DNA of 64,000 nucleotides from Mycobacterium kyogaense (GTDB taxonomy: Bacteria > Actinomycetota > Actinomycetes > Mycobacteriales > Mycobacteriaceae): the NCBI RefSeq assembly GCF_036946525.1, contig NZ_JAQIIY010000019.1, positions 45,458 to 109,457 of the forward strand, in the 5' to 3' direction. Numbering within the stretch: the stretch's first letter is position 1; every line of letters begins with the position of its first letter. The notes under the pieces were generated by a model, which was not told the origin of the DNA, searched no databases, and was given only the letters and a program-made list of their open reading frames with translations. This document shows positions 1 to 64,000 of the stretch, one piece after another. A program made the translations under genes and the position numbers.

Positions 1-1
1 C

Positions 2-298
2 ACCGAGGGCGGCCTCGACATCCACACCTCACCGGTCATCGCGCTCGTCGTGGAGTCGTCGTGCACCTACAGTGCCCCGGCCGCCTACCCGGACCAACTC
101 CGGGCGGGCCTGCGCGTCGATGCGATGTCCCGACGCTCGGTCACCTGGGGTGTGGCGATCTTCGGCGCCGACGACACGGCGGCGCTGGCCCACGGCCGCT
201 TCGTGCACGTGTTCGTCGACCGCGAGCAGCGCACGGCGGTGCCGATTCCCGAGGCGATGCGTGCTGCGCTGGAAACTATTGCCGCACAGCCGCAATGA
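2..298 (+). CDS. hotdog-fold (4HBT-type) acyl-CoA thioesterase, 3' portion; 5' end lies outside the window
   Basis: Frame is open from the window edge to TGA 296-298. The tail ...VTWGVAIFGADDTAALAHGRFVHVFVDREQRTAVPIP... resembles YbgC/4HBT thioesterases. Confidence 0.6.
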   Translation, partial: TEGGLDIHTSPVIALVVESSCTYSAPAAYPDQLRAGLRVDAMSRRSVTWGVAIFGADDTAALAHGRFVHVFVDREQRTAVPIPEAMRAALETIAAQPQ

Positions 299-947
299 GC
301 TCGGCCACCTGCTGCGCAGCGAGCAGTGCGGACGGGTCGTCCGACGGCGCGTAGCGGTCGGCGGCGGCGTCGTAGCAAGCCCCGGCGATCCCGCCGTGAT
401 CGGTGTCGAGTTCGACCACGCGCACAGGCCACCCGGCGGATTCCAGCCGCTGGGCGAACCGACGGCTCACCTCCACGCCGACGACGTCGTCGGCACGGCC
501 GTGCAGCAGCGTGAACGGCGCGCCGGCAACGGCTCGCGGGAGCGCATCAGCCGGCGGTACCCCGCTGATCGGATCGGCCACCATGAACGCGCCGGCCAGG
601 CACACCGTGTGCGCCAGTGACACGTCCAACTCGTCGGCGTGCAGTGTCAGGCCCGCAGCCGCAGCACCCCCGAGCGACCATCCGACGAGCGTGAGCCGAT
701 CCGGGGCGGCCGCCCAGTCACGCACGCAGTCGACCGACGCCAGCAGGTCCGACCGGCCGTGATCGGGTGCATGCGAATTCCAATCCGGCGCCACCACTCC
801 GAAGCCCCACTCGACGAGCGCGGTGGCCAGCCGAGCGACGGTGGCACGGGCGTCGGTCTGGGTCCCGTGCCACAGCAGCAGTGGCGCATCGGCCGGCTCA
901 CCGTAGATGTCCGCGTGGCGGCCCGGTGCGTACTCGATGGTGTCCAT
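276..947 (-). CDS. alpha/beta hydrolase
   Basis: GWSLGG nucleophile-elbow motif and C-terminal ...LDTDHGG... His region. Start placed at MDTIEY (947) to avoid overlapping nei; the longest ORF alternative starts at 1004. Confidence 0.75.
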   Translation of the reverse strand: MDTIEYAPGRHADIYGEPADAPLLLWHGTQTDARATVARLATALVEWGFGVVAPDWNSHAPDHGRSDLLASVDCVRDWAAAPDRLTLVGWSLGGAAAAGLTLHADELDVSLAHTVCLAGAFMVADPISGVPPADALPRAVAGAPFTLLHGRADDVVGVEVSRRFAQRLESAGWPVRVVELDTDHGGIAGACYDAAADRYAPSDDPSALLAAQQVAELIAAVRQ

Positions 948-979
948 GACGCTCGGGTGCCCACCGCGGCCCATTCGAT

Positions 980-1768
980 TCATCTCTGACAGGTCGGGCA
1001 CCACCAGGTGCGCCTGCGCTCCGGATCTCCCGCCACCTCAGCGACCACCCGCACCGTCGTCCCGCAGCGCAGGCACGGACGTCCCGCGCGCCCGGCCACC
1101 CAGTGCTGCTCGCCTTTGCGTCGCACCCCGGTCGTCACCTGCATCGCGCCCGGCACCGTCGCGGAGTGGCGCAACGCCCGCGCACCCAACTCCAGCAGCG
1201 CGGCGACGTCGACCTGTCCGACCGGTGTCCACGGATCGTGCCCACGCAGGAAGCACAGCTCGTTGGCCCACAGATTGCCGAACCCGGCGACGCACCGCTG
1301 GTCGAGCAGGACGGCGACCAGCGGTCGCTGCGGGTCGGCGCCGACGCGCCGGGCTGCCTCGTCGAGATCCCAGTCGTCGCGCAGCGGATCGGGTCCGAGG
1401 TGGCCGACGCAGCGATCCTCGTCGGCCGTGCGCACCAGCTCGACCACCGGCAGCCTCACCCCGTAGGCGGCCGGCCCGTCGGTGCGCAGCACCACCCGGA
1501 CGTCGGGCATCACCGACCGCGGCAGCCAGCGCCCGGTCGGCGACACCGTCCACGATCCCGACATGCGCAGATGGGTGTGCAGCGTGACATCGCCGGAGAG
1601 CCGCGTCAGCAGATGCTTGCCGTGAGTCAGGTGCGCCGTCACGGTGTGGCCCGAGAGATCGTCGGTCGCGTGCGCGGGCACGCGCAGGTCGCCACGGACG
1701 AGGGTGCGGCCCCTCAGGGCGTCATCGAGGCGCCGGGCCAGCGCGTAGACGGTGTCACCCTCGGGCAC
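980..1768 (-). CDS. nei: Fpg/Nei family DNA glycosylase (endonuclease VIII-like)
   Basis: N-terminal MPEGDTV (catalytic Pro2/Glu3) and C-terminal zinc finger CLRCG...WWCPTCQ. 262 aa. Confidence 0.9.
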   Translation of the reverse strand: MPEGDTVYALARRLDDALRGRTLVRGDLRVPAHATDDLSGHTVTAHLTHGKHLLTRLSGDVTLHTHLRMSGSWTVSPTGRWLPRSVMPDVRVVLRTDGPAAYGVRLPVVELVRTADEDRCVGHLGPDPLRDDWDLDEAARRVGADPQRPLVAVLLDQRCVAGFGNLWANELCFLRGHDPWTPVGQVDVAALLELGARALRHSATVPGAMQVTTGVRRKGEQHWVAGRAGRPCLRCGTTVRVVAEVAGDPERRRTWWCPTCQR

Positions 1769-1774
1769 GCGGTC

Positions 1775-2125
1775 TCAGACGCTGCGGGATTCGCTCGCCG
1801 CTTCGCGGATGGGCCTGGTGGTCAGGTGGTCCAGCACGCCGGTGATGTCGAGCAGCCGCTGCAACTGCGCAGGCCGGCGGTCGAGGTGCAACTGCACCCC
1901 TGAGACAGAGGTCTTGCGATGAACGAGCAGGAGGCCGGACAGACCGGCCGAGTCACAGAACGTCAGGCCGGCGAAGTCGAGGCGCAGGTCGGTGACCGAC
2001 GGCGAACCGGCCAGCAGGTCCGTCACGGCCGAGACGAGCCTCGGCGTGCTCTCGTAGTCGAGGTCTCCGGCCACGGTCAGCCTGGTCGACGTGCCGTCGA
2101 AGTCGGTGCTCAGCGTGAGATTCAT
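1775..2125 (-). CDS. STAS-domain anti-sigma-factor antagonist (SpoIIAA/RsbV-like)
   Basis: 116 aa starting MNLTLSTDFDG. Conserved phosphorylatable Ser in FCDSAGLSGLL. ATGA overlap with the upstream gene at 2122-2125. The longer 366-aa ORF prefix is Arg/Pro-rich out-of-frame noise. Confidence 0.85.
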   Translation of the reverse strand: MNLTLSTDFDGTSTRLTVAGDLDYESTPRLVSAVTDLLAGSPSVTDLRLDFAGLTFCDSAGLSGLLLVHRKTSVSGVQLHLDRRPAQLQRLLDITGVLDHLTTRPIREAASESRSV

Positions 2126-3177
2126 GCAGATGCTGCCTGGTCGATCGGGGCCCTGCCGAGTGCACGGTGTGCCGCGGCGAGGAGGCGCTGGGTACGGGGG
2201 AATTCGGACAGGTGGGCGGCCAGCGAGTCGAGCGCGGGATGCAGCGACGCCGCAGGCACCCCACGGGCGGAGAGGATCTCGGCGGTCCAGGTGACGAAGT
2301 CGGTGAACAGCGCATCGTCGTCGGTGTACAACGCGGTGGCCAGGAAGTCGACGATGTGCGCGAGGTCCTCGACGGTGTGCTGGCGCTGCTGCTCGGTGTA
2401 GTCGCGCATCGCGGGAAAGCGGGTTTCCAGCTCGGTCATCGTCGTCGCGACCAGGTTGCCTGCCGCCGTGCTGACCATCGTGTACTCCTGGTCGGCCAGG
2501 TGCGGCAGGTCGTCGATGGGTTGGTGCGGCGCGCACGGCGTACGGCGCGGCACCCCGTCCGCGAGCAACGTGGCTGCGGTCCTCGCGTCGGGCGCCCACG
2601 CCTCGGCGCCCAGAAGTGTGGCGTAGCGGCCGTCGATTCCGAAGCCGGCGCCACCGGCGAGAACCGGGACTCCGGCGGCCTGGCACGCCGTGATCGCGGC
2701 GTGCGCGGTGGGCAGACGGGTCGGGATCATGCACGACAGCGCAACCGCGTCGGGGCCGTGATGATGCAGGTGCGCGATCAGATGGGGCGTGGGTACCTGG
2801 GCGCCGAGGAAGTCGACCTGCCACCCGCGCAGCCGCAGTACTTCGGCCAGCAGCCGCGCGGGCAGCGCGTGCCACTCACCGTCGACGCACGCGACCGTCA
2901 CGCGGCCCGCTGATGCCTGCGCCGACCGGCACGCACCGTGGTGCGCCAGGGCCGCGATGACCCGGTCGTTGATGGCGGTGGCCACATGCTCCTGCACGAC
3001 CGTGATCCGGTTGGCCGCCCACTCCGTGCCCACTCGACGCTGCACGGGCGCGATGACGTCGAGAAGCAGCTCCTCGCAGGGAACCCCGGCGTCGGCGGCC
3101 TCGAGAACCGCTGCTGCGGCGGCGTATTCGTCACCGTCGAGGAGCGCGGCCCACAGCCTGTCGATGGTGGTGCTCAT
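2122..3177 (-). CDS. stand-alone cobalamin (B12)-binding protein, CarH/LitR-type sensor module without a DNA-binding domain, plus a C-terminal helical domain
   Basis: 351 aa from MSTTIDRLW. W53-x9-E63H64 (EWAANRITVVQEH), E101-x-H103 (DGEWHALP), then a Rossmann-like GPDAVALSCM...GVPVLAGGAG. ATGA overlaps at both ends (3174-3177 and 2122-2125). Confidence 0.8.
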   Translation of the reverse strand: MSTTIDRLWAALLDGDEYAAAAAVLEAADAGVPCEELLLDVIAPVQRRVGTEWAANRITVVQEHVATAINDRVIAALAHHGACRSAQASAGRVTVACVDGEWHALPARLLAEVLRLRGWQVDFLGAQVPTPHLIAHLHHHGPDAVALSCMIPTRLPTAHAAITACQAAGVPVLAGGAGFGIDGRYATLLGAEAWAPDARTAATLLADGVPRRTPCAPHQPIDDLPHLADQEYTMVSTAAGNLVATTMTELETRFPAMRDYTEQQRQHTVEDLAHIVDFLATALYTDDDALFTDFVTWTAEILSARGVPAASLHPALDSLAAHLSEFPRTQRLLAAAHRALGRAPIDQAASA

Positions 3178-4589
3178 GCGGACGCCGTGAACCTCCCGGC
3201 CGTGTGCCCGTCGACCGCGCTGAGGTGAGTGCGGCGGGGCGATGTGATCGCCACGACGGCGATGTCGTCGTGAGGGCGGCCCTTCACCCATTGCGAGGTG
3301 AGCATCATGATGCGCTCGACGACAGCCTCGGCGGGCATACCGACGCACTCTCGCAGAGCAGCGGTCAACCGTGGTTCCCCGAACATCTCCGAGCCCGTCG
3401 GCCCGCCGTGTGCCTCGGTCACCCCGTCGGTGAACAGCAGGCAGGTCTCGCCAGGAGCCAGCGTGGTCTCGAAGGTGGACGACCTGATCTCGGGCAGCGC
3501 CCCGACCAGAGTGCCGCGCGTATCGGCCTCTTCCACCCGACCGTCGGCACGCACGATCAGCGGCGCGAGATGTCCGGCACTGGTCAGGCGCAGGCAGACC
3601 TGGCCGTCGCGGCGGCACACCGACGCCAGCACGAGCGTGGCGAACTTCGTGTGCTCGGCTGACAGCAGCGCACTGTTGAGTAGACGCAGCACGCCGGCGT
3701 GGTCGTCGGCCAGCGGCGCCAGCGCCTGCAGGGTGTTGCGGATCTTCCCGGTGACGAGCGCGGCCTCGAGACCCTTGTCGCAGACGTCGCCGAGCACGAC
3801 CAACGTCTCGTCCTCCGGGCTCGCCGCGGGATGCACGTCGTAGAAGTCACCGCTGACCAGGTGGTCGTCCTCGGAGGCGCGGTAGCCGCCTGCCAATTCG
3901 ATGCCGTGGAAGCGATGCAGCTGCGGGGGCAGCAGGTCCCGCATCAGCGTGCGGGTGATCGCCGCCTGCTCGCCGTAGAGGCGGGCGGCGGACAGCGCCG
4001 TGCCGGCGCGGGCGGCGAAGAGACGGGCGAAGACTTCCTCGCCGTCGCTGAACGCCATCTGCGAGGTCTGGCGCAGTAGCACCAACGCGCCCGCGGGGAC
4101 ACCGTGGCCTGGCAGTGGCGTGATGACGACGGAGCCGACGGGGCCGGAGAAACCCTCCGGAATGAGCCATTCGGGGACCGTGGCCGCATCGATCCACCGC
4201 GACGGCACCGGCGGGAATCCCCGCAGGGCCTCCGCGAGGCCGGCGACCAGCTCAGGTCCGCCCTCCACGGTGCGCTGCACAACCGTGCCGTCGGGACCCG
4301 CGCACACCAGCGAGATCTGTCGGCGCGTCGCGGGCGCCACCACGACCGCGGCGTCGGCGAGGTGCCGCGCCGCCATCCGGACAGTGGCTTCCATGCAGCG
4401 CTCGACGTTGAGCGAGGCCATCAGTTCTGTGGAGGCCTCGTCGAGGAACGCGGCGCGGTCGCGTTCGCGACCCACGGCCTCCTGGGCGAGCAGCAGGGCC
4501 TGGTCGATGTCGGTGAAGAGCCACCAGGGCGATCGCACCGTCGGGCAACCGGGTCGGTCGCGCTTCGATCTCGCGGCCGGCGACCTCAC
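3174..4589 (-). CDS. GAF-PP2C (SpoIIE/RsbU-type) serine phosphatase; the native N-terminal PAS part appears to lie in another frame (see 4252..4854)
   Basis: PP2C motifs SGDFYDV, LGDVCDKG, LLFTDGVTEAHG and DDIAVVAI. GAF-like middle region. The first ~18 codons after GTG 4589 look non-native. Confidence 0.85.
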   Translation of the reverse strand: MRSPAARSKRDRPGCPTVRSPWWLFTDIDQALLLAQEAVGRERDRAAFLDEASTELMASLNVERCMEATVRMAARHLADAAVVVAPATRRQISLVCAGPDGTVVQRTVEGGPELVAGLAEALRGFPPVPSRWIDAATVPEWLIPEGFSGPVGSVVITPLPGHGVPAGALVLLRQTSQMAFSDGEEVFARLFAARAGTALSAARLYGEQAAITRTLMRDLLPPQLHRFHGIELAGGYRASEDDHLVSGDFYDVHPAASPEDETLVVLGDVCDKGLEAALVTGKIRNTLQALAPLADDHAGVLRLLNSALLSAEHTKFATLVLASVCRRDGQVCLRLTSAGHLAPLIVRADGRVEEADTRGTLVGALPEIRSSTFETTLAPGETCLLFTDGVTEAHGGPTGSEMFGEPRLTAALRECVGMPAEAVVERIMMLTSQWVKGRPHDDIAVVAITSPRRTHLSAVDGHTAGRFTASA

Positions 4590-4854
4590 CGACGGCGGTG
4601 GCGGGCAGCCCCATGTGGGCGGCGATCAGCCAGTCGGGGGCACAGTCGAGCAGCGCCGCGCCGGGCCGGGCCGCGGGCAGCAGCGCCAGCGCGGCGGCGC
4701 TCGCGGCGCTCACGACGCCATCGGCGTCCACGACGATCACGGGGTGAGGGACCTTGGCCCAGGTGGGGTCCCAGGTGGGCTCTGCGGCGATGGTTTCGGT
4801 GACAGCGCCGACGGCCAGTTCGGGGGTAGCGTTCTTACGCACGTCAACCCCCAT
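4252..4854 (-). pseudogene. PAS-like N-terminal fragment of the phosphatase gene, separated from the GAF-PP2C body by an apparent 1-nt frameshift near 4535-4539
   Basis: Residues 1-106 (…HPVIVVDADGVVSAASAAALALLP…VGEVAGREIEARPTRLPDG) look native. After that the frame becomes Arg/Pro/Gly noise, while the other frame continues ...RSPWWLFTDIDQALLLAQ. Confidence 0.55.
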
Positions 4855-4995
4855 TCGATGTTGTTGATCACTCTACGCCGGAACAGCGCTGAAGCGATTT
4901 GCCTTGACTGCAGTGGTCGGACCACCCTGGAAGAAGTGAGCAAGGCCCCCAGCACTGCAGCTGTTCCTTCGACGGTAACGCATCATCGGCCGCGG

Positions 4996-6165
4996 ATGGG
5001 AGTTGTGACGATTCTGTCGGCTGTCGCGATCATGCTCGTCGCGGCGAATCTGCGGCCGGCCGTGGTGGCGGTGGCGCCCCTGGTCGGGGACATCAAGTCG
5101 GCAACCGGGTGGGGCAGCGGGGTCACCGGCCTGCTCACCACCCTGCCGGTGCTGGTGTTCGGCCTCGTCTCTCCGCTGGCGCCCCGGTGCGCGGCGCGCT
5201 TCGGCATCGAACGCACGGTGTTCGGAGCGCTGGTGGTTCTCGTCGTCGCCAGCGCCGTGCGGCTGGTTCCCAGCCCGTGGGCGCTGTTCGCCGGTTCCGC
5301 GCTCGCCGGCGTCGGCATCGGGATCTGCAACGTGGTCCTGCCGTCGCTGATCAAGCGCGACTTCGTTCATCATTCCGGCCTGATGACCGGCCTGTACTCG
5401 ATGACGCTGTCGGGTGGCGCCGCCGCGGCCGCGGCGCTGACCATCCCCATCGACGATGCGCTGGGCGGCAATTGGCGGCTCGCGCTGGCGAGTTGGGGTG
5501 TCTGCGCGGCGGCGGCGCTGCTGATCTGGGTGCCGCAACTGGCCCGCGTGCACCGGGTCAGCGCCGGGCGCCCCGCGGCGTCGCTGTGGCGCAATCCGAT
5601 CGCCTGGGCCGTCACCGCCTTCATGGCGTCGCAGTCGTTCATCTTCTACACATTCACGGCCTGGCTGCCCGAGGTCCTGGTGGATCGCGGCATGTCGGCC
5701 AGCAGTGCCGGCGCGGTACTGGCTCTCGGTCAGGTGGCCGGGCTCGTGATGTCGCTGCTGGCGCCGATCGTGGCGGGTCGGTTCACCGACCAGCGCGCCG
5801 TCACGCTGGCGGCGCTGGCGCTGACCGCCGTCGGGTTCGTCGGTCTGGTGACGACGACGTCGGCCCCGACGCTGTGGACGATGCTGGTGATGGCGGGCCC
5901 GGGTGCATCGATCAGCCTGGCGCTGCTGTTCATGGTCCTGCGCAGCACCTCGACGGACCAGACCAGCCAGGTGTCGGGCATGTCGCAGAGCGTCGGATAC
6001 GTCGTGGCGGCGATAGGGCCGGTCGCGATCGGCGCGCTGCACGACGTGACGGGATCGTGGACCGTCGCGATGACCGTGCTCGCTCTGGTCCTCGTTCCGC
6101 AAGCGGTCTCCGCACTGTGGGCGGCCAGGGACGTGACCATGGACGAGTACCAAAAAAGCCGGTGA
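4996..6165 (+). CDS. MFS transporter (CynX/NimT-like)
   Basis: About 390 aa of hydrophobic 12-TM-like sequence from MGVVTILSAVAIMLV. The upstream part of the 721-aa ORF is antisense to the phosphatase gene and looks non-coding. Confidence 0.85.
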   Translation: MGVVTILSAVAIMLVAANLRPAVVAVAPLVGDIKSATGWGSGVTGLLTTLPVLVFGLVSPLAPRCAARFGIERTVFGALVVLVVASAVRLVPSPWALFAGSALAGVGIGICNVVLPSLIKRDFVHHSGLMTGLYSMTLSGGAAAAAALTIPIDDALGGNWRLALASWGVCAAAALLIWVPQLARVHRVSAGRPAASLWRNPIAWAVTAFMASQSFIFYTFTAWLPEVLVDRGMSASSAGAVLALGQVAGLVMSLLAPIVAGRFTDQRAVTLAALALTAVGFVGLVTTTSAPTLWTMLVMAGPGASISLALLFMVLRSTSTDQTSQVSGMSQSVGYVVAAIGPVAIGALHDVTGSWTVAMTVLALVLVPQAVSALWAARDVTMDEYQKSR

Positions 6166-6181
6166 CCGCGAGGTCACCGGC
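6152..6181. terminator. bidirectional stem-loop terminator (A6-GCCGGTGACC-gcga-GGTCACCGGC-TTCT)
   Basis: Perfect 10-bp stem with a 4-nt loop. Read on the minus strand it is followed by TTTTTT, which serves the small ORF 6228..6371. The stem contains the TGA stop of the MFS gene. Confidence 0.75.
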
Positions 6182-6227
6182 TTCTACGGCTTCACTGGGC
6201 GTTCCCCAGCGCGTCGCTGTGCGTTCG

Positions 6228-6371
6228 TCAGCCCTGAGCGGATTCGTACCGCTCGGCGACGGCCACGAGTTCGTCGCGGATCGACGAATCGGGCAGCGAA
6301 CGGATCCGCGCGTACAGACGACGCCGATCCCTGGCGAGCTTGAGGTTGGCGCGGAACTGCGCGACAGACAT
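6228..6371 (-). CDS. small conserved-looking hypothetical protein (47 aa)
   Basis: MSVAQFRANLKLARDRRRLYARIRSLPDSSIRDELVAVAERYESAQG. Strong AAGGAG RBS about 8 nt upstream of the ATG and a hairpin plus U-tract downstream. Confidence 0.65.
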   Translation of the reverse strand: MSVAQFRANLKLARDRRRLYARIRSLPDSSIRDELVAVAERYESAQG

Positions 6372-8239: not shown

Positions 8240-8495
8240 GCTGCGGGCCGCGGCGGCACTGTACGGGTCGTCGGCATTGTTCGCCGCCGCGCTGGCCGTC
8301 GCGCCGGCGGCCGGTGCGGAGTGCGTCAGCTCCAACGGCACCACGGTCTGCTCGCAGGGCTCCGTGCGTGGCACCAACAACGGGCAGGGTCCCGGAACGC
8401 TCGACACCGGACCTGCGTGGCCCTATCCCTGCGACTACGACTGGTACTGCGACGACGGCGGGCTCTCGATCATCTTCTCGCCCGGACGCAACTGA
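8226..8495 (+). CDS. small secreted Cys-rich protein (89 aa)
   Basis: Signal peptide ...FAAALAVAPAAGA|ECVSSNGTTVCSQGS... with four Cys (C-x9-C and C-x5-C, PCDYDWYCDD). Confidence 0.6.
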   Translation: MAVSRLRAAAALYGSSALFAAALAVAPAAGAECVSSNGTTVCSQGSVRGTNNGQGPGTLDTGPAWPYPCDYDWYCDDGGLSIIFSPGRN

Positions 8496-8512
8496 ACGCG
8501 AACAGGAGCACC

Positions 8513-8851
8513 ATGAGCACTCTCCTCGCCCGTGCCGTGATGACGGCACTCGCACCGGCAGCGGCGCTGCTGGCCGTCGCGGGCCCGGCGTCCGCCCAAC
8601 CGGCGCCGGCCCCGCCGCCGAACTGCACGGCCGCCGACCTGGCCGGCGTCATGGCCGGCGTCACCGCCGCCACCTCGGCCTATCTGTTCACCCACCCGGA
8701 CGTGAACGACTTCTTCACCAGCCTGCGGGACAAGAGCCGCGACGACATGAAGGCCGCGGTCGAGGCGTACGTCACCGCACGCCCGGATGTGGGGGACTCG
8801 CTGCGCGCGATCCGGCAGCCCTCGGTCGACTTCCGGGCCCGCTGCGGTTAG
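8513..8851 (+). CDS. hemophore-related secreted protein (Rv0203/Rv1174c family)
   Basis: Signal peptide, then ...PPNCTAADLAGVMAGVTAATSAYLFTHPDVNDFF...VDFRARCG with terminal Cys pair. AGGAG RBS before ATG 8513. Confidence 0.8.
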   Translation: MSTLLARAVMTALAPAAALLAVAGPASAQPAPAPPPNCTAADLAGVMAGVTAATSAYLFTHPDVNDFFTSLRDKSRDDMKAAVEAYVTARPDVGDSLRAIRQPSVDFRARCG

Positions 8852-19301: not shown

Positions 19302-19419
19302 GCGTCGACCGTAGCCGACGTCAGCGGGTGGTCAGCTCTCGATCGTTTGACCAGCAAACGTGCGGGTACTGCAGGACTGGCGCTGCTCTCCGCGCGTCAG
19401 CCTGAGAGAGGAAGCCCCT

Positions 19420-20124
19420 ATGTCACGTCATCCCTGGGCCCGTGTCGCCGCAACGTTGATCGCCGGAGCCGCCGCGGTGGCGGCCGGCGGTGCCGCCGCC
19501 CCGACGGCAGCTGCCCAAGGATGTCCGGACGTCGAGGTGGTGTTCGCCCGCGGCACCGGTGAGCAGCCGGGAGTCGGCGGAGTCGGACAGGCCTTCGTGG
19601 ATGCGGTGCGCGCGCAAGCGGCACCCCGGACGGTCGGTGTGTACGCGGTGAACTACGCCGCGTCCAACAACTTCGACGCTCGCACCGAGATCGCCCAGAC
19701 CGTCATCGACGGCATTCGCGACGAGTCCGACCACGTACAGGCGATGGCCGCCAACTGCCCGAACACCAGGATGGTGCTCGGTGGCTACTCGCAGGGCGCT
19801 CTGGTGTCGGGCTTCACGACCTCCGATGTCGTTCCTGCCATGGTGCCTGCGGCGATCGCGCCGCGTCCGATGCCGCCGGAGGTGGCCGATCACGTCGCGG
19901 CCGTCGTGCTGTTCGGCACACCGTCGGCGCCCTTCCTGCAGCGCTACGGCGCTCCGGCCATCACGATCGGGCCGCGCTACGCGGACAAGACCCTGCAGCT
20001 GTGCGCGCAGGGCGACACGATCTGCGACGGCGCCCCCGACGGCGGCCCGACCGTGGCGCACGCCCTGTACCCGGTCAACGGGATGGTCAACGAGGGTGCG
20101 ACATACGCCGTCGGCCGGTTATAG
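19420..20124 (+). CDS. secreted cutinase family protein
   Basis: Signal peptide, CPDVEVVFARGTGE, catalytic GYSQG, C-terminal ...LCAQGDTICDG...H. Confidence 0.9.
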   Translation: MSRHPWARVAATLIAGAAAVAAGGAAAPTAAAQGCPDVEVVFARGTGEQPGVGGVGQAFVDAVRAQAAPRTVGVYAVNYAASNNFDARTEIAQTVIDGIRDESDHVQAMAANCPNTRMVLGGYSQGALVSGFTTSDVVPAMVPAAIAPRPMPPEVADHVAAVVLFGTPSAPFLQRYGAPAITIGPRYADKTLQLCAQGDTICDGAPDGGPTVAHALYPVNGMVNEGATYAVGRL

Positions 20125-21236: not shown

Positions 21237-21463
21237 ACGAGCACGCCCCACGTACCGTCCGGGTCGTGCCCGGCGGTCCGGTGATGGTGGAAGGACCTGT
21301 GCGCGTGGAACTTCCGGACGGCTCAGTGGCGGAATCGGACAGATTCATGGTGGCCATCTGCGCGTGCCGGCGCTCGAAGACCTATCCGCTGTGCGACACC
21401 AGCCACCGCCGCCGGCAACGCCCGGCGGCGGATGCCGAGTCAGTCCAGAGCGCGGCGGAGTGA
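21233..21463 (+). CDS. CDGSH-type iron-sulfur domain protein
   Basis: CACRRSKTYPLCDTSH matches C-x-C-x2-S-x3-P-x-C-D-x-S-H. ATGA overlap with the methyltransferase stop. Confidence 0.8.
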   Translation: MNEHAPRTVRVVPGGPVMVEGPVRVELPDGSVAESDRFMVAICACRRSKTYPLCDTSHRRRQRPAADAESVQSAAE

Positions 21464-22453
21464 GCTGCGTCCCGCGTCCCAGCTCTGCATGAGGTGATCG
21501 GCCAGTCGGCCCTCCACGAGGTCGAACGCCCGGATACCGAACACCACGTCGGTGTCCAGCTCGGGCTCACGAGCCACCAAGTCGCCCACCACGTCGGTAC
21601 GGACGACCTGCTCGTGCACCGCGTCGGCTTCGACGTGCTCGCGGTAGAAGGCCGCGCATTCGTCGGGCGCGCCCATCCGCTCCAGCGCCGCCACCATGCG
21701 CTTCGACCCGGGGGGAGAGGTCACCTCGGTCGCCGCGAAATGGCCGACTGCTGCGCCGCGCCACCGACGGTGCAAACCGAACAGCGACATCAGGTTCACC
21801 ACGGCCAGCGAATGCGCGGGAACGTCGGCAAGGTAGCCGAGATAGGTGGTGTCCAGTCCGGCCGCCGCCATCAGGTCAGCGAACAGCTGCTGGTGCAGCC
21901 TCGCGCCCTTGCCTGCGCCAAACTCGTCGAACTCGACGGCGACGAACGACGCTTTGGCCTGTCCCGTCAGACGCGGTATGGCCCACGCGTGCGGATCGCC
22001 TTCTTTGAGGTGGTACAGCGAGCGGTGGGCGAAGTATTCGCGCATCTGGTCCCACGTGCCGCTGTCGCGCAGATAGTACGACGGGCCGGTGCCACCGACG
22101 GGCTCCAGACAGAGTGCGTCCAGCTCGTCGAGCGCACTGGTGTCGGGGTCGATCTCGCCGACTCCGCGCCTGACGTCATCGAGAAAGAGATCTTCCAGGC
22201 GGCCGCGCAGGTAGAGCAGTCCGGGGTTCCATTCCCAGCCGGCGTCCACTCCCGCGAAGCCGCGGTAGTGGAGTTCGTAGCAGAGATACAGCGCCAGGTG
22301 CAGATCGATGCCCGCGGGATCGGCGTCGGCGAGCGAGGTTTCGACTTTGGTGAGGTAGCGCAGCGGTGCCCGCTCGGCCAGCAGCTCGACCACGGACAGC
22401 GAGATCGGCCCGCGGGGTTCGGGAAGCAGGGGTTGAACCATCGTCGGCATCAC
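21440..22453 (-). CDS. iron-containing redox enzyme family protein (heme-oxygenase-like fold)
   Basis: 337-aa helical protein with ...DLHLALYLCYELHYRGF... and later E/H-rich helices. Family assignment is from memory of similar annotations. Confidence 0.6.
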   Translation of the reverse strand: MMPTMVQPLLPEPRGPISLSVVELLAERAPLRYLTKVETSLADADPAGIDLHLALYLCYELHYRGFAGVDAGWEWNPGLLYLRGRLEDLFLDDVRRGVGEIDPDTSALDELDALCLEPVGGTGPSYYLRDSGTWDQMREYFAHRSLYHLKEGDPHAWAIPRLTGQAKASFVAVEFDEFGAGKGARLHQQLFADLMAAAGLDTTYLGYLADVPAHSLAVVNLMSLFGLHRRWRGAAVGHFAATEVTSPPGSKRMVAALERMGAPDECAAFYREHVEADAVHEQVVRTDVVGDLVAREPELDTDVVFGIRAFDLVEGRLADHLMQSWDAGRSSLRRALD

Positions 22454-22660
22454 GGCTGCGACATACCCCGCCGAGATCGCGCCAAACGGGCGGCGCCGGT
22501 ACCCACTCAGGGGGCTTGATCACACATGGATGCTGCCTTTTTCACATTTTCCCGTTCTGTGCTGTCAGGCCCCCCGGTAGGTGGGTAGCCGGTCGGCAGG
22601 CGCACATCAGTGCCACTGACCGAAGCAGGAAGCAAACTCCCGAAGGGGTGAGTACGACAC

Positions 22661-25794: not shown

Positions 25795-25842
25795 CTGCAT
25801 TCCGGTGTTTCTGCCTGCAGCGGGCCGGGTAGCCGGATCTCG

Positions 25843-26295
25843 ATGGCCACGACACACCTACCCGGCAGGCACCGCCTCTCGCCGGCCCACGCCGGTCCGC
25901 GGTGGGGCTTGGCGTCGCTGATGGTGGCCGCGGGTATGGCGGGTTGGTTGCTCGCCGTGGCCGGACCCGATGGTCCGCGGACGATGACGATGTCTGCACC
26001 CTCGGTGCCACAGCCTGTTGCGATCGCTGCCCAGGACATTCAGCGCACCGGTTGGGTCACCGCGGTGTCAGAGACATCGCTGACCACCGCCGATGCCGCA
26101 GGGCGGACCATGACGTTCGCCATCACCCCCGACACCACGAAGGTCCATCGGCCGGGCGCGACGGCTTTTGCCCCGTCCGAGCACGTCGCCGTGGTCGCCG
26201 TCGTCCGCGACGGCGTGCCGGTGGCCACCGCGATCGTCGACAGAGGTGCCACGGAAGGGGCCGGCCAACCGATGGACTATGGGTTGCCGCACTGA
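25843..26295 (+). CDS. hypothetical membrane-anchored protein
   Basis: 150-aa ORF with one TM (LASLMVAAGMAGWLLAVAG) then a beta-rich region. Start uncertain. Confidence 0.5.
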   Translation: MATTHLPGRHRLSPAHAGPRWGLASLMVAAGMAGWLLAVAGPDGPRTMTMSAPSVPQPVAIAAQDIQRTGWVTAVSETSLTTADAAGRTMTFAITPDTTKVHRPGATAFAPSEHVAVVAVVRDGVPVATAIVDRGATEGAGQPMDYGLPH

Positions 26296-40535: not shown

Positions 40536-42215
40536 ATGGTGGGGGTGCGACGGGTGCAGGGCGACTTGGACGAGGGCGCGGACGAGGGCGCGGCCGAGGA
40601 GCTGACGCTCTCCGACGCTGCCTCTGACCTGCAGGTTCTCCGGTGCCTGCTGCGCGTCGCCGAGGCCGTCGCCCGGGCCGACGCGTTCGACGAGGCCCTC
40701 GAGGTGATCGCTGAGCAGGCGCTCGGCGCGCTTCGGGCGTCGTCGCTGTCGATCAGCCGCTGGGAGGCCGATCTCTCGTCGCTGCGCACCATGATCAACG
40801 TCGGCGACCTCGGCCCCGACGAGACGCGGTGGCCGGCCGACGAGTACTACCCGGTGAACGCCGACCCCCACATCTCTGATTTGCTGCTGCACGGCCGCTC
40901 CTACATCAACGCCCTTGACCAGCCCGACTGCCCGCCGTATTGCACGGCGTGGCTGCAGAAGATCGGCAAGGAGAGCGAGATCGCCGTGCCGATCATGAGC
41001 GGTGACTCGATGTGGGGCGAGATCTGGGCCTCCGGCGACGGCGGTCGACGATTCGACCTCGGCGACGCGCAGCTGCTCGCGGCCATCGCGGCGTACATCA
41101 CGGTGGCGATCAACCGATCCGAGACGTTGAACACCGTCTGGGGATATGCCCTGCAGGACCCGCTCACCGGCATCGCCAACCGCCGCGCCATCGATCAGCG
41201 TTTCACTGAATTGGATTGGGAGACATCCACTCCCGTAGTCATCCTGTGCGACCTGGACGGCTTCAAACGCATCAACGACCGTGACGGTCACCCGGCGGGG
41301 GATCAGCTGCTGCGCGATGTCGCCGCAGTGCTCGGCGGTCTGGCCGACACCGTCGATGGCGCGATAGCCGCGCGTCTGGGTGGCGACGAATTCTGCATCG
41401 TGCTCCCCGACGCATCGCTGGCCTCGGCGCAGGTGTTCGCCACCGATGCCACCCGTGCCCTGCACGACGCCGTCGATCGCGAGGTCAGTCTGTGTTGGGG
41501 CGCCGCGACGACGGGACCGGACGTCCGCAGCGCGGCGGAGTTGCTGGCCGCCGCCGATGCCGCACTGCTGCACGCCAAACGGCAGGGGCCGGCGCGCTAC
41601 AGCACCGGGGCACCGGCGTCGGTGGATGCCCGCGACCTCGCCGGGTGGGACCGTCGAACGGGGCCGCGCCGCGCCGTCGACCGGTTGGCCTCCGATCTGG
41701 TGCGCATGCTCGACGAGCAGCCCGAGATGACGCTTGCGCAGGCCCTGGAGGCGCTGGCCGTCGCCCTCTCGCAGGCACTCGACGCGGCGGCCTGGGCAAT
41801 CTCCGAGACCACCGAGGGAGGCACGGCGCTGAGGCTGGTGAGCAACGTCGCCAGCGTGCGCAAGCAAGAGGCGGGGCTCACCGTCCTCATCGACTTCGGA
41901 CCGCCGAACTATCCGCTCGAGGACTACCCCACCTCGGCGCGTGCGATCGCCGACGGCACGACCTTCCTGGCCGCGGTGGGAATGGAGTCCGCCGACCCCG
42001 ACGAGGTCGCGCTCCTGCAGGTTCTCGGCTACCAGGCGGTGCTCGGCATCGGTGTGCCCGCCGGCGAGAAGGGCTATTTGATGGAGATCTACTCCCATGA
42101 CGGTCACGCAGAACTCGCCGACATCGCCCCGCTGGCAAGGATTCTCGCGGCGTACTGCGTGACCCGGGTCGGTCAGCGGAACCCGGCCGACCCGCCGTCG
42201 GCCATGACCGTCTGA
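40536..42215 (+). CDS. GAF-GGDEF-GAF diguanylate cyclase
   Basis: N-terminal GAF-like region, LTGIANRRAID...CDLDGFKRINDRDGHPAGD...RLGGDEFCIV, then a second GAF-like C-terminal domain. Start uncertain. Confidence 0.85.
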   Translation: MVGVRRVQGDLDEGADEGAAEELTLSDAASDLQVLRCLLRVAEAVARADAFDEALEVIAEQALGALRASSLSISRWEADLSSLRTMINVGDLGPDETRWPADEYYPVNADPHISDLLLHGRSYINALDQPDCPPYCTAWLQKIGKESEIAVPIMSGDSMWGEIWASGDGGRRFDLGDAQLLAAIAAYITVAINRSETLNTVWGYALQDPLTGIANRRAIDQRFTELDWETSTPVVILCDLDGFKRINDRDGHPAGDQLLRDVAAVLGGLADTVDGAIAARLGGDEFCIVLPDASLASAQVFATDATRALHDAVDREVSLCWGAATTGPDVRSAAELLAAADAALLHAKRQGPARYSTGAPASVDARDLAGWDRRTGPRRAVDRLASDLVRMLDEQPEMTLAQALEALAVALSQALDAAAWAISETTEGGTALRLVSNVASVRKQEAGLTVLIDFGPPNYPLEDYPTSARAIADGTTFLAAVGMESADPDEVALLQVLGYQAVLGIGVPAGEKGYLMEIYSHDGHAELADIAPLARILAAYCVTRVGQRNPADPPSAMTV

Positions 42216-50958: not shown

Positions 50959-51137
50959 AGGGGATCGCTCTCCATGGTGGCCGAAGATCGGGCGGCCGGA
51001 CGGAGCGGGTGCCCGCGGGACGGGTCCGCGACGCGCCCCGGACCGTCGCGCTCGGTATGGTGATTGCTCGCCGGCGACGGGGGAATCGTGGGCTGACGAG
51101 CATCGTCGGCCGGGCAGCCGGACTGTCAGAACCTCAG

Positions 51138-52046
51138 ATGTGGAGCAACGCTGTGAGCCTGAACACCATCGCTTTGGAGCTGGTGCCGCCGAACGTCGAT
51201 CGGGGGCGCGAGCAGGCTCTCTCCGACGCCGAGAAGGTGCTGCGCTGTTCGGCCGAAGCGGGCATCGGCGGTCGGGTTCGGCACGTGATGATCCCGGGCA
51301 TGATCGAGGAGGACGACGACCGTCCCCTGGAGATGAAGCCCAAGCTCGACGTGCTCGAGTTCTGGTCGATGATCAAGCCCGAACTGCCCGAGGTGCGCGG
51401 GTTGTGCACCCAGGTCACCGCGTTCATGGACGAGCCGACGCTGCGCGGCCGGTTGACCGAGCTGAGTGACAGCGGGTTCGACGGCATCGCGTTCGTCGGG
51501 GTGCCGCGCACGTTGAGCGACGGCGAAGGTTCGGGCGTGGCGCCCACGGATGCGTTGACGATGTTCGACGAGGTCGTCGACAACCGCGGCGTCATCCTCA
51601 TCCCGACCCGTGAGGGCGAGCAGGGCCGGTTCAGCTTCAAGTGCGGTCGCGGCGCCACCTACGGCATGACGCAGCTGCTGTACTCCGACACGATCGTCGA
51701 CTTCCTCACCGAGTTCGCCGCCACCAACGAGTACCGGCCGGAGATCCTGCTGTCCTTCGGGTTCGTGCCTGCGGTGGAGAACAAGGTCGGCTTGATCAAC
51801 TGGCTGATCCAGGACCCGGGCAACGCCGCGGTCGCCGCCGAGCAGGACTTCGTCAAGCAGCTGGCCGGCGCCGAGCCGGTGGAGCGGCGCAAGCTGATGG
51901 TCGACCTGTACAAGCGCGTGATCGACGGGGTCGGCGAGCTGGGCTTTCCGCTCAGCGTGCACTTCGAGGCCACCTACGGCGTCAACACCCCGGCGTTCGA
52001 GACGTTCGCGGAGATGTTGGCTTTCTGGGCTCCCGACACCGATTAG
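51138..52046 (+). CDS. non-canonical methylenetetrahydrofolate reductase-like protein (Rv2172c-like by recollection)
   Basis: ...LNTIALELVPPN...HVMIPGMIEEDDDRP...GIAFVGVPR...ATYGMTQLLYSD. Alternative start at GTG 51153. Confidence 0.65.
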   Translation: MWSNAVSLNTIALELVPPNVDRGREQALSDAEKVLRCSAEAGIGGRVRHVMIPGMIEEDDDRPLEMKPKLDVLEFWSMIKPELPEVRGLCTQVTAFMDEPTLRGRLTELSDSGFDGIAFVGVPRTLSDGEGSGVAPTDALTMFDEVVDNRGVILIPTREGEQGRFSFKCGRGATYGMTQLLYSDTIVDFLTEFAATNEYRPEILLSFGFVPAVENKVGLINWLIQDPGNAAVAAEQDFVKQLAGAEPVERRKLMVDLYKRVIDGVGELGFPLSVHFEATYGVNTPAFETFAEMLAFWAPDTD

Positions 52047-52595: not shown

Positions 52596-53258
52596 CTAGA
52601 TCTTGATCGGATCGCCGTAGACCGCGAACTGCGTGTGGGCCACGTCGGTGGAGACGCGCAGGTACGCATACGACCGCACGGTCACGTCGCCGCCGCACGC
52701 ATCGGCCTTGATGTGGATGTTGTCGATGTCGATCATCGCCCGGCCGTCCTGGCTGAGCGTCATGTTCGACAGTGGAAGGTCGACGATCACGCCGGGCTGC
52801 AGGACGGTCTGCACGAAGCCCGCGACTCCACCGGTGCCGCCCACCGACACACCGGAGCCACCGCCGACGCCGACCGTGCCCTGGGGCGCCACCCCGGCTG
52901 TGCCGCCGTACTGCAGACCGGCGGACACGTCGGATTGGCAGCCCAGCTGGTAGCCCAGGATGAAGATGCTGTCAGTGATCGGGCTGGACCCGCCGACTGC
53001 GGTCGCGGTCGCCGATGCGGTGACGAAGCCCTCCCGGGAGTCGTTGGCATTGGCCAGGTTGGGCACCGAGTTGACCACTTCGTTGTCGATCCGGATGGTG
53101 AGATGCCAGCCGTCACGGGACACCTTGTCGTAGCTCTGCGGGCGCATGGCCACCGGTTCTGCGCCGGCCAATCCGCCGCTCGCCGCCACCAACGCCGTCA
53201 CAGCAGCAAAGACCCTCCCCGCACCCCACAGCACGCGTGTAGCTAAGCAGACCGGCAC
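52596..53258 (-). CDS. MspA-family porin, divergent member
   Basis: Signal peptide. ...SREGFVTASATATAVGG....FILGYQLG... parallels MspA ...TREWFHSGRAKYIVAGP...LELGYQIG. C-terminal ...FAVYGDPIKI versus ...TTYGEPWNMN. Confidence 0.7.
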   Translation of the reverse strand: MPVCLATRVLWGAGRVFAAVTALVAASGGLAGAEPVAMRPQSYDKVSRDGWHLTIRIDNEVVNSVPNLANANDSREGFVTASATATAVGGSSPITDSIFILGYQLGCQSDVSAGLQYGGTAGVAPQGTVGVGGGSGVSVGGTGGVAGFVQTVLQPGVIVDLPLSNMTLSQDGRAMIDIDNIHIKADACGGDVTVRSYAYLRVSTDVAHTQFAVYGDPIKI

Positions 53259-63420: not shown

Positions 63421-63825
63421 TCAGCCGGCCATGAACGTGTCGTACGCCGACTGGAGGTCGGCGGGCAGCACGGTGACGTTGCAGGTGCGCTGGGTGTCGC
63501 CGATCGGTGCCAAGATGCCCCGCAGCTCGTAGTACTCAGCCGGGTTCGCGGTGAAGTAGGCCCGCACGTTGGCCTCGGCCTCGGGGCGCGGCTGCCGCAT
63601 CGCGGCCGTCACGACCTGGTTGGCACCGGGATGGCTGTCGAGGTACTGGCGGGCCGCCGTGGTCGCCGAACCGACCGTGCCCGCGACCTGGCTGGCGCTG
63701 CAGCCGTCGCCGGGCTGAGCCGATGCGACAGGCGCGGCAACACCTGCGACAGCAAGTCCGCCGAAGACACACGCCGCCCCGACGCGAGCCACGTTCTTGC
63801 GCACGCTGATAGCACTGGAATTCAT
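63421..63825 (-). CDS. hemophore-related secreted protein (Rv0203/Rv1174c family), second paralog
   Basis: Signal peptide, ...GDGCSASQVAGTVGSATTAARQYLDSHPGANQV...RTCNV... AAGGA RBS before ATG 63825. Confidence 0.75.
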   Translation of the reverse strand: MNSSAISVRKNVARVGAACVFGGLAVAGVAAPVASAQPGDGCSASQVAGTVGSATTAARQYLDSHPGANQVVTAAMRQPRPEAEANVRAYFTANPAEYYELRGILAPIGDTQRTCNVTVLPADLQSAYDTFMAG

Positions 63826-64000
63826 GGTGATTGTGGTCCTTGTCAGATCTCGTTGGTGAATCTTTCCCCGCCCGAAATCCACGGTAACCGCGTTCCGAAG
63901 GGCTCCCGCCAGACCGGATGACGCGCTCGCGAAGCGCGGCGCGGTGTTACAGGATCGAGGCGTGAGTTCGGCCTCAAAACGACCGCGAAACCCCCTCTGA

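Follow-up and report, generated by a model that had tools for sequence, protein, structure and literature searches.

Gene content of the locus

Three minus-strand genes in a 64,000-nucleotide stretch of Mycobacterium kyogaense contig NZ_JAQIIY010000019.1 (positions 45,458 to 109,457, hereafter the window) encode a PP2C-type phosphatase, a B12-binding protein of 351 amino acids and a STAS protein of 116 amino acids. Comparison of its sequence and structural model identifies the middle gene product as a predicted photocobilin, orthologous to SasPcob of Saccharothrix syringae and carrying two chromophores rather than one. The genes lie in the order phosphatase, photocobilin, STAS and are joined by ATGA overlaps at 3174-3177 (phosphatase/photocobilin) and 2122-2125 (photocobilin/STAS). 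The order, strand and overlaps had been described in a first-pass annotation of the window, and all of them could be read in the sequence. An overlap of 4 bp is frequent in operons and unremarkable by itself. The features of the operon are:

1775-2125, minus strand: STAS gene (open reading frame (ORF), 116 aa)
1949-1951, minus strand: codon of the putatively phosphorylatable Ser59 of the STAS protein (alignment to SpoIIAA)
2122-3177, minus strand: gene of the B12 protein, the predicted photocobilin (ORF, 351 aa)
about 2155-2505, minus strand: predicted photoglobin (bilin-binding) domain of the photocobilin (SasPcob homology and fold match)
2605-2907, minus strand: B12-binding Rossmann domain of the photocobilin (Pfam)
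2947-3165, minus strand: B12-binding_2 four-helix bundle of the photocobilin (Pfam)
3019-3021, 2986-2991, 2869-2871, 2365-2367 and 2287-2289, minus strand: key photocobilin codons W53, E63-H64, H103, D271 and W297, respectively
3174-4589, minus strand: GAF-SpoIIE/PP2C phosphatase ORF as read in the window (471 aa)
about 3243-3815, minus strand: SpoIIE domain of the phosphatase (Pfam, E = 7e-41)
about 3993-4451, minus strand: GAF domain of the phosphatase (Pfam, E = 0.003)
4527-4531, minus strand: frameshift site, one extra base in the C run of gcgatcGCCCtggtgg relative to related loci
4531-4854, minus strand: PAS-like N-terminal segment of the phosphatase (108 aa, in the frame of the ATG at 4854)

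The middle gene encodes a predicted photocobilin

Photocobilins consist of a CarH-like B12 module fused to a five-helix, globin-like 'photoglobin' that binds biliverdin (PMC10979010). SasPcob binds adenosylcobalamin (AdoCbl) in the base-off/His-on form through His108, the adenosyl group being surrounded by Trp61 and Glu71-His72, and biliverdin is held by Asp270 and Trp296; structures are available for the dark state (PDB 8J2W) and for the light state (PDB 8J2X) (PMC10979010). The Co-C bond is cleaved by green light directly and by red light through biliverdin, and an enzyme, whether fused to the photocobilin or supplied in trans, can be activated by the light state (PMC10979010).

A Pfam scan of the window protein found B12-binding_2 (PF02607) at residues 5-77 (E = 2e-15) and B12-binding (PF02310) at residues 91-191 (E = 7e-19). 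W53-x9-E63-H64 is encoded by nt 3021-2986, and nt 2877-2869 encode E101-W-H103. Both motifs lie where the first-pass annotation had placed them, and the STAS Ser59 and PP2C acidic motifs that it also cited, treated below, are present as well. In a sequence search of the PDB, the best matches were 8J2W and 8J2X (E = 1.3e-90 over residues 6-341), and the next was 8J2Y (E = 2e-45). In the PDB, 8J2W and 8J2X carry the title 'cobalamin-binding protein'; the three entries are the photocobilins SasPcob and AbPcob (Zhang et al., Nat Commun 2024, PMC10979010). The window protein is 50.5% identical to SasPcob in a pairwise alignment, and all six of the ligand residues are conserved, with W61, E71, H72, H108, D270 and W296 of SasPcob corresponding to W53, E63, H64, H103, D271 and W297 here.

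Conservation was assessed in a set of 80 loci, each from a different GTDB species, from the genera Mycobacterium, Mycolicibacterium, Streptomyces, Amycolatopsis, Saccharothrix, Pseudonocardia, Nocardia, Actinacidiphila and Actinoallomurus; counts of neighbouring genes across this set are based on tblastn. The six AdoCbl/biliverdin ligand residues were invariant in all 80 orthologues. Four signatures, GxxW, EH, GxxH and GxxxP, have been described as 'light-responsive' (PMC11796333). Three of them were invariant in the 80 orthologues, and GxxH was found in 79, with variation at G100; the corresponding positions in the window protein are G50xxW53, G100xxH103 and G125xxxP129.

Structural comparison gave the same picture. 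The AlphaFold2 model of the whole protein (predicted local distance difference test score, pLDDT, 94.4) matched 8J2W in Foldseek with template modelling (TM) scores of 0.87/0.92. After the photocobilins, the matches were the B12 domains of CtMerR and CarH mixed with MetH and MttC (E about 1e-9 to 1e-7), and the photoreceptor B12 domains superposed better on the model than did MetH/MttC (TM at least 0.8 on the target). When the C-terminal 132 residues were modelled alone (pLDDT 91.6), the isolated domain matched the biliverdin domain of SasPcob with a query TM score (TMq) of 0.82-0.85, followed by dozens of phycobiliproteins at a TMq of about 0.7.

The B12 module had earlier been assigned to the CarH light-sensor type rather than to the methyltransferase or mutase type, and this assignment held: CarH gave the top NCBIfam score, the light-sensor signatures were present, and photoreceptors were the top structural matches. 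A methyltransferase- or mutase-type B12 domain was rejected on the PDB sequence, NCBIfam and Foldseek comparisons. The reported lack of a MerR-type helix-turn-helix (HTH) domain also agrees with the analysis, as the four-helix bundle begins at residue 5 and there was no HTH match in Pfam at E ≤ 1. The C-terminal domain, however, is not the RsbRD_N-like domain of unknown function that the first-pass annotation had suggested. It had no Pfam match at E ≤ 1, to RsbRD_N (PF14361) or otherwise, and an RsbR-type globin was rejected as well, since no RsbR structure was among the top 50 Foldseek matches, where SasPcob and the phycobiliproteins were found instead. The sequence and model comparisons identify this domain as a predicted bilin-binding photoglobin, which makes the whole protein a predicted two-chromophore photocobilin. 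Binding of AdoCbl and a bilin, and photoconversion, would follow from its close homology to the characterized SasPcob.

The photocobilin family is large. More than 2400 proteins were found at E ≤ 1e-20 among the candidates scored, and there were 327 clusters (50% identity) at E ≤ 1e-30 among 1.84 billion representatives. The nearest named relatives of the window protein, at 91-93%, are from Mycobacterium sp. PSTR-4-N and M. kyogaense.

The STAS protein and the phosphatase

The 116-aa protein matched the Pfam families STAS (E = 4e-11) and STAS_2 (E = 1e-12), and it matched the NCBIfam anti-sigma factor antagonist model TIGR00377 with E = 1e-13 and 51.0 bits, slightly below the curated cut-off of 53.45. 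It aligns with the SpoIIAA and RsbV structures, and Ser59 falls on the Ser in SpoIIAA's DSSGL phosphorylation motif (PDB 1TH8), so that the phosphorylatable serine proposed in the first-pass annotation is indeed kept. Ser59 was also kept in 72 of the 75 STAS orthologues.

In the phosphatase, the SpoIIE domain is complete (model positions 2-190 of 192), and the PP2C Asp motifs that had been reported are kept, all four acidic motifs being legible as GDFYD, GDVCDKG, TDG and DDIAV. Overall, the Pfam scan that the first-pass annotation had proposed matched SpoIIE, B12-binding_2, B12-binding and STAS; its match to GAF was weak, and PAS reached E = 0.31, at the N-terminus of the phosphatase. The PDB matches of a profile built from 20 phosphatase N-termini were all PAS domains (FixL, DcuS), and these were also weak (E 0.07-0.3). 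Together these matches are weak evidence that the N-terminal segment is PAS-like. The GAF domain is most similar to GAF-A of the Mycobacterium tuberculosis redox sensor DevS (PDB 2Y79, E = 2e-4). The His of the DevS 'PPYHPP' segment, which we take to be the haem ligand, pairs with a Gly in the alignment; a haem-binding, DevS-like GAF was therefore rejected as a candidate, and haem binding would not be expected.

The earlier description of a GAF-PP2C phosphatase overlapping the photocobilin gene at 3174 stands with respect to its domains and the overlap, but a frameshift near 4527-4531 had gone unnoticed, and no single ORF extends from 4854. One base separates the register of the PAS-like frame (4854 to about 4531) from that of the GAF-PP2C frame (4589-3174). 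DNA alignment with two related loci (L001 and L002) showed a single-base gap, the relatives being one base short in 'GCGATCGCCCTGGTGG', and the protein alignment changes frame at the same site. In the relatives the phosphatase is one continuous protein of 538-553 aa, and the segment in the window aligns with the N-termini of these proteins. The N-terminal segment was detected by tblastn in 57 of the 80 loci, where its match ends directly upstream of the PP2C match; in some loci the two matches share a few residues of overlap. The GAF-PP2C frame shares 92-95% identity with the closest relatives' phosphatases and is otherwise free of lesions. The neighbouring major facilitator superfamily (MFS) transporter, acyltransferase and nei genes are of the expected lengths, and the lesion is therefore isolated. 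The indel at 4527-4531 stems either from an error in sequencing or from a recent mutation that inactivates the gene.

Conservation of the operon across actinobacteria

The phosphatase gene was directly upstream of the photocobilin gene in 78 of the 80 loci, and the STAS gene was directly downstream in 75. The complete order PP2C-photocobilin-STAS was found in 73 of the 80 species loci, from at least eight genera, so that the three-gene arrangement proved to be conserved in the neighbourhood survey that the first-pass annotation had called for. At the PP2C/photocobilin junction, 74 of 78 loci offered an in-frame start overlapping by 4 bp, and at the photocobilin/STAS junction 73 of 75 did so (about 95%). 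The availability of overlapping starts at both junctions in these sequences exceeds chance. Because the starts are available in such high proportions, there is strong evidence that the triad would be co-translated and would share a function.

A small RsbW/SpoIIAB-type HATPase_c_2 kinase adjoins the operon in 21 of the 80 loci, in Amycolatopsis and also in Streptomyces; it was adjacent in none of the mycobacterial loci of the set. The Amycolatopsis loci contain a four-gene block, in which a kinase of about 160 aa is encoded directly upstream of the phosphatase and is followed by the photocobilin and the STAS protein:

about 5850-6340 (locus coordinates): RsbW-type kinase in Amycolatopsis loci L035, L045, L051, L053, L056-L059, L061, L063, L065 and L067

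To reconstitute the cascade, Amycolatopsis genomes would be the most suitable choice. Among the genes that commonly neighbour the operon in the related loci, no sigma-factor family recurred, in an analysis that included no search aimed at sigma factors.

Comparison with known systems

The closest known relative of the window protein is SasPcob, which it resembles in three-domain architecture, length, ligand residues and fold (TM 0.87-0.92). Three Saccharothrix loci (L055, L062 and L079) encode a PAS-GAF-PP2C phosphatase, a photocobilin and a STAS protein, the same neighbours as found here. The differences are that the host is Mycolicibacterium-like and that chromophore binding by the window protein is predicted by homology. 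By sequence, the locus is a mycobacterial orthologue of a characterized photocobilin in its typical operon.

This type of operon has been noted before. Schneider et al. (CSBJ, Computational and Structural Biotechnology Journal, 2021) reported that actinobacterial B12-photoglobin genes occur alongside PAS-GAF-SpoIIE phosphatases, STAS proteins, which they called 'ubiquitous', and standalone HATPase proteins; they added that none of these loci had been studied and that it was not known how the parts are coordinated (PMC8717448). Their operons have the exact configuration found here: one protein with B12-binding_2, B12-binding and photoglobin domains is encoded with a PAS-GAF-SpoIIE protein and a STAS protein, joined in some genera by a standalone HATPase. 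Their analysis was bioinformatic only, and the operons were framed as one- or two-component signalling, not as partner switching (PMC8717448). A link between SasPcob and neighbouring STAS and SpoIIE/PP2C genes followed in 2024 (PMC10979010). No paper besides these two was found in a full-text literature search for B12, a photoreceptor, STAS and SpoIIE together. The first-pass annotation was not aware of any characterization of this type of input for partner switching; the operon type had already been published in 2021 and 2024. The idea is in the literature as a neighbourhood observation, and what is added here is its confirmation and quantification.

The CarH/LitR photoreceptors (Thermus thermophilus CarH, PDB 5C8A/5C8D) share the B12 module, including the Wx9EH cap and the ExH lower ligand. 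The window protein is 28-30% identical to CarH, with a TM of about 0.83 normalized to CarH, and its NCBIfam CarH match covers only model positions 87-262, with 57 bits against a cut-off of 400. It differs from CarH/LitR in that the MerR-type DNA-binding domain is absent and a bilin-binding globin is added, and its output is presumably through protein contacts rather than DNA binding.

Like the RsbU/RsbP-RsbV-RsbW, SpoIIE-SpoIIAA-SpoIIAB and mycobacterial UsfX(RsbW)-RsfA/RsfB-SigF modules, the operon combines a SpoIIE-family PP2C with a single-domain STAS protein carrying a putatively phosphorylatable Ser. Unlike in those modules, neither a kinase nor a sigma factor was found in the window, and the gene of a dedicated photoreceptor protein separates those of the phosphatase and the antagonist. 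In the Bacillus subtilis stressosome, YtvA (LOV-STAS) and RsbR (globin-STAS) are precedents for light input into a sigma-factor partner-switching cascade and for the pairing of a non-haem globin sensor with STAS. These proteins bind flavin mononucleotide (FMN) or have no known chromophore, their sensor and STAS domains are fused, and they act through the RsbT kinase and the large stressosome, whereas the globin here is of the phycobiliprotein type.

Photocobilins have so far been characterized mainly for their photochemistry and as optogenetic parts. This locus and the 73 related loci with the complete triad indicate a specific, testable target pair for the standalone photocobilins, namely the PAS-GAF-PP2C phosphatase and its putative STAS substrate, and the tight and broad conservation makes their native output directly testable.

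Proposed mechanism and alternatives

On the basis of sequence and of analogy with partner-switching systems, we consider it reasonably probable that the light state of the photocobilin controls phosphatase/STAS partner switching in this operon. The CarH-type module would bind AdoCbl base-off/His-on, with H103 as the lower ligand and with W53 and E63-H64 capping the adenosyl group, and the phycobiliprotein-like C-terminal globin would bind a bilin beside the corrin through D271 and W297. Green light directly, and red light through the bilin, would break the Co-C bond, and the conformation or assembly of the dimer would change, as predicted from homology with SasPcob. The operon partners would then be the targets, the light state of the photocobilin altering, upward or downward, the activity of the phosphatase on phospho-Ser59 through protein contact. 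Dephosphorylated STAS protein would capture an RsbW-type anti-sigma kinase and thereby free a sigma factor of the SigF/SigB family. The kinase would be encoded adjacent to the operon in Amycolatopsis and Streptomyces and elsewhere in the genome in mycobacteria. For SasPcob and AbDPcob, the photochemistry and the regulation of enzymes through protein contacts have been demonstrated (PMC10979010). Light control of STAS dephosphorylation is plausible.

Several points weigh against this interpretation. No experiment linking any photocobilin to a PP2C or STAS partner was found in the literature. The published in-trans assay employed a non-cognate diguanylate cyclase, and its authors called the role of standalone photocobilins 'less clear' (PMC10979010). 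The phosphatase frameshift leaves the module either mis-sequenced at that point or impaired. A tblastn search with 23 RsbW-like kinases gave no match in the window, and no sigma factor or anti-sigma kinase was found in Pfam scans of 30 further window ORFs. No canonical haem oxygenase that could supply biliverdin was found in the window.

About half of the window ORFs were scanned with Pfam, and the remainder were judged from a crude ORF list; as far as these searches reach, the first-pass annotation was correct that no anti-sigma kinase or sigma factor is encoded in the window. No extra STAS or PP2C paralogues were found there either. The B12 protein is embedded in a PP2C-STAS partner-switching operon, as had been proposed, and the kinase and sigma factor would be encoded outside the window. 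In mycobacteria, haem degradation by MhuD yields mycobilins, not biliverdin. Mycobacteria could for this reason use, as their native antenna for red light, a bilin other than the one used in vitro.

A wider claim can be made only tentatively. The triad may be the physiological output of standalone photocobilins, a B12/bilin dual-colour switch that acts on STAS phosphorylation and through it on a SigF/SigB-type regulon in non-phototrophic actinobacteria, including environmental mycobacteria. Were the proposed target pair confirmed, actinobacterial partner-switching cascades, those of many environmental and opportunistic mycobacteria among them, would gain a light input that uses cobalamin and a bilin.

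One alternative is that the photocobilin and the STAS protein form a split sensor similar to RsbR or YtvA, in which the photocobilin acts mainly on STAS and gates its availability to the kinase or phosphatase, while the PAS and GAF domains of the PP2C would govern that enzyme independently. In RsbR the domain fused to STAS is a non-haem globin, and in YtvA it is a LOV domain. The STAS gene here follows immediately after the photoglobin domain, with the overlapping start at that junction in 73 of 75 loci; two Streptomyces loci (L040 and L064) have the photocobilin and STAS genes without the phosphatase; and the phosphatase does have sensor domains of its own (PAS-like and GAF). However, the junction with the phosphatase is equally tight (74 of 78 loci), and the fold of the C-terminal globin places it with the phycobiliproteins rather than with RsbR. 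This arrangement is unlikely, though it merits consideration beside control of the phosphatase by light.

It is about equally doubtful that the module is decaying in this genome, in which case the frameshift would be real, the phosphatase would lack the PAS-like domain or not be made, and signalling would be abnormal. The extra base relative to L001 and L002, the position of the N-terminal match directly upstream of the PP2C match in 57 of the 80 loci and the expected lengths of the MFS transporter, acyltransferase and nei genes, which indicate that the assembly is not generally error-ridden, are consistent with decay. The lesion is nevertheless limited to one indel within a short run of C, the rest of the GAF-PP2C frame is free of lesions at 92-95% identity, and the photocobilin and STAS genes are intact, a pattern that suits a sequencing error or a very recent mutation.

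An improbable alternative is that the protein is a chemical sensor that reports cobalamin availability, or the status of haem breakdown through the bilin, to the cascade, its light sensitivity being incidental. The hosts are non-phototrophic, and B12-binding regulators such as AerR act partly through the state of the cofactor. AdoCbl binding by itself shifts enzyme activity and bilin affinity in characterized photocobilins (PMC10979010). Against a purely chemical role, W53 and E63-H64, which are needed for capping of the adenosyl group and not for mere B12 binding, are invariant in all 80 orthologues, and SasPcob, from a similar soil actinomycete, photoconverts cleanly.

That the protein is a corrinoid methyl-carrier of a methyltransferase system, as suggested by the JGI name 'methanogenic corrinoid protein MtbC1' given to many homologues and by weak NCBIfam matches to pyl_corrinoid, MtgC and MtbC (E 1e-7 to 1e-10), is very improbable, as these matches score 18-38 bits against cut-offs of 215-450 and rank below CarH (E = 1e-15), the light-sensor signatures and a fused bilin-binding globin are present, the top structural matches are photoreceptors, and none of the 80 loci has a methyltransferase gene within the operon.

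Upstream intergenic region and neighbouring genes

The operon is divergent from an MFS transporter gene, and the region between them was strongly conserved in an alignment of nine Mycolicibacterium loci. The other features of the window that were examined are:

980-1768, minus strand: nei/fpg-type DNA glycosylase gene (ORF; the homologue in L002 has Pfam Fapy_DNA_glyco and H2TH)
4855-4996: divergent intergenic region between the MFS transporter gene and the operon
8321-8851, plus strand, and 63421-63882, minus strand: haemophore-type haem-binding protein genes (Pfam MHB, E = 2e-30 and 3e-28)
19345-19368, plus strand; 22464-22487, minus strand; 25807-25831, plus strand: matches to the SigF promoter pattern, each immediately upstream of a gene
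19360-20124: cutinase gene behind the first of these matches
21440-22453: haem-oxygenase-like 'iron-containing redox enzyme' gene (PF14518) behind the second
25843-26295: 150-aa ORF behind the third
40536-42215, plus strand: GAF-GGDEF (diguanylate cyclase) ORF
51009-52046, plus strand: mycobacterial-type methylenetetrahydrofolate reductase gene (PF19345, E = 6e-160)
52596-53258, minus strand: MspA-type porin gene

The invariant blocks in 4855-4996 include GTTA.CGTCGA, CTCACT, GGCAAATC and GCGTA. About 25 nt ahead of the ATG at 4854 there is a -10-like TAGAGT, from which we infer a putative promoter; a binding site for a regulator was not found in the region. No sigma-70 consensus promoters and no intrinsic terminators were found in 1-5300, and no cobalamin riboswitch, other Rfam family or tRNA was found in the whole window.

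A connection between SigF and carotenoids is documented in M. smegmatis (PMC4694148). Nothing in the window ties the operon to SigF, and no SigF-type promoter (pattern GTTT-N14-18-GGGTA) precedes it. The same pattern had three exact matches in the window, compared with 0.21 expected by chance. They suggest a local group of genes belonging to the SigF regulon; the photocobilin operon is preceded by none of the matches.

The nei/fpg-type gene begins 6 nt past the stop of the STAS gene, no terminator-like site intervenes, and the gene is found beside the operon in only about seven closely related loci. It may be co-transcribed with the operon in this lineage only. The haemophore gene at 8321-8851 is 3.5 kb from the photocobilin gene; a functional link to the operon was considered and is unlikely, because the synteny extends only to the two closest relatives. 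The MspA-type porin and methylenetetrahydrofolate reductase genes both fit a window from a fast-growing mycobacterium. The GAF-GGDEF ORF is unrelated to the operon. Fusion to GGDEF occurs in some photocobilins.

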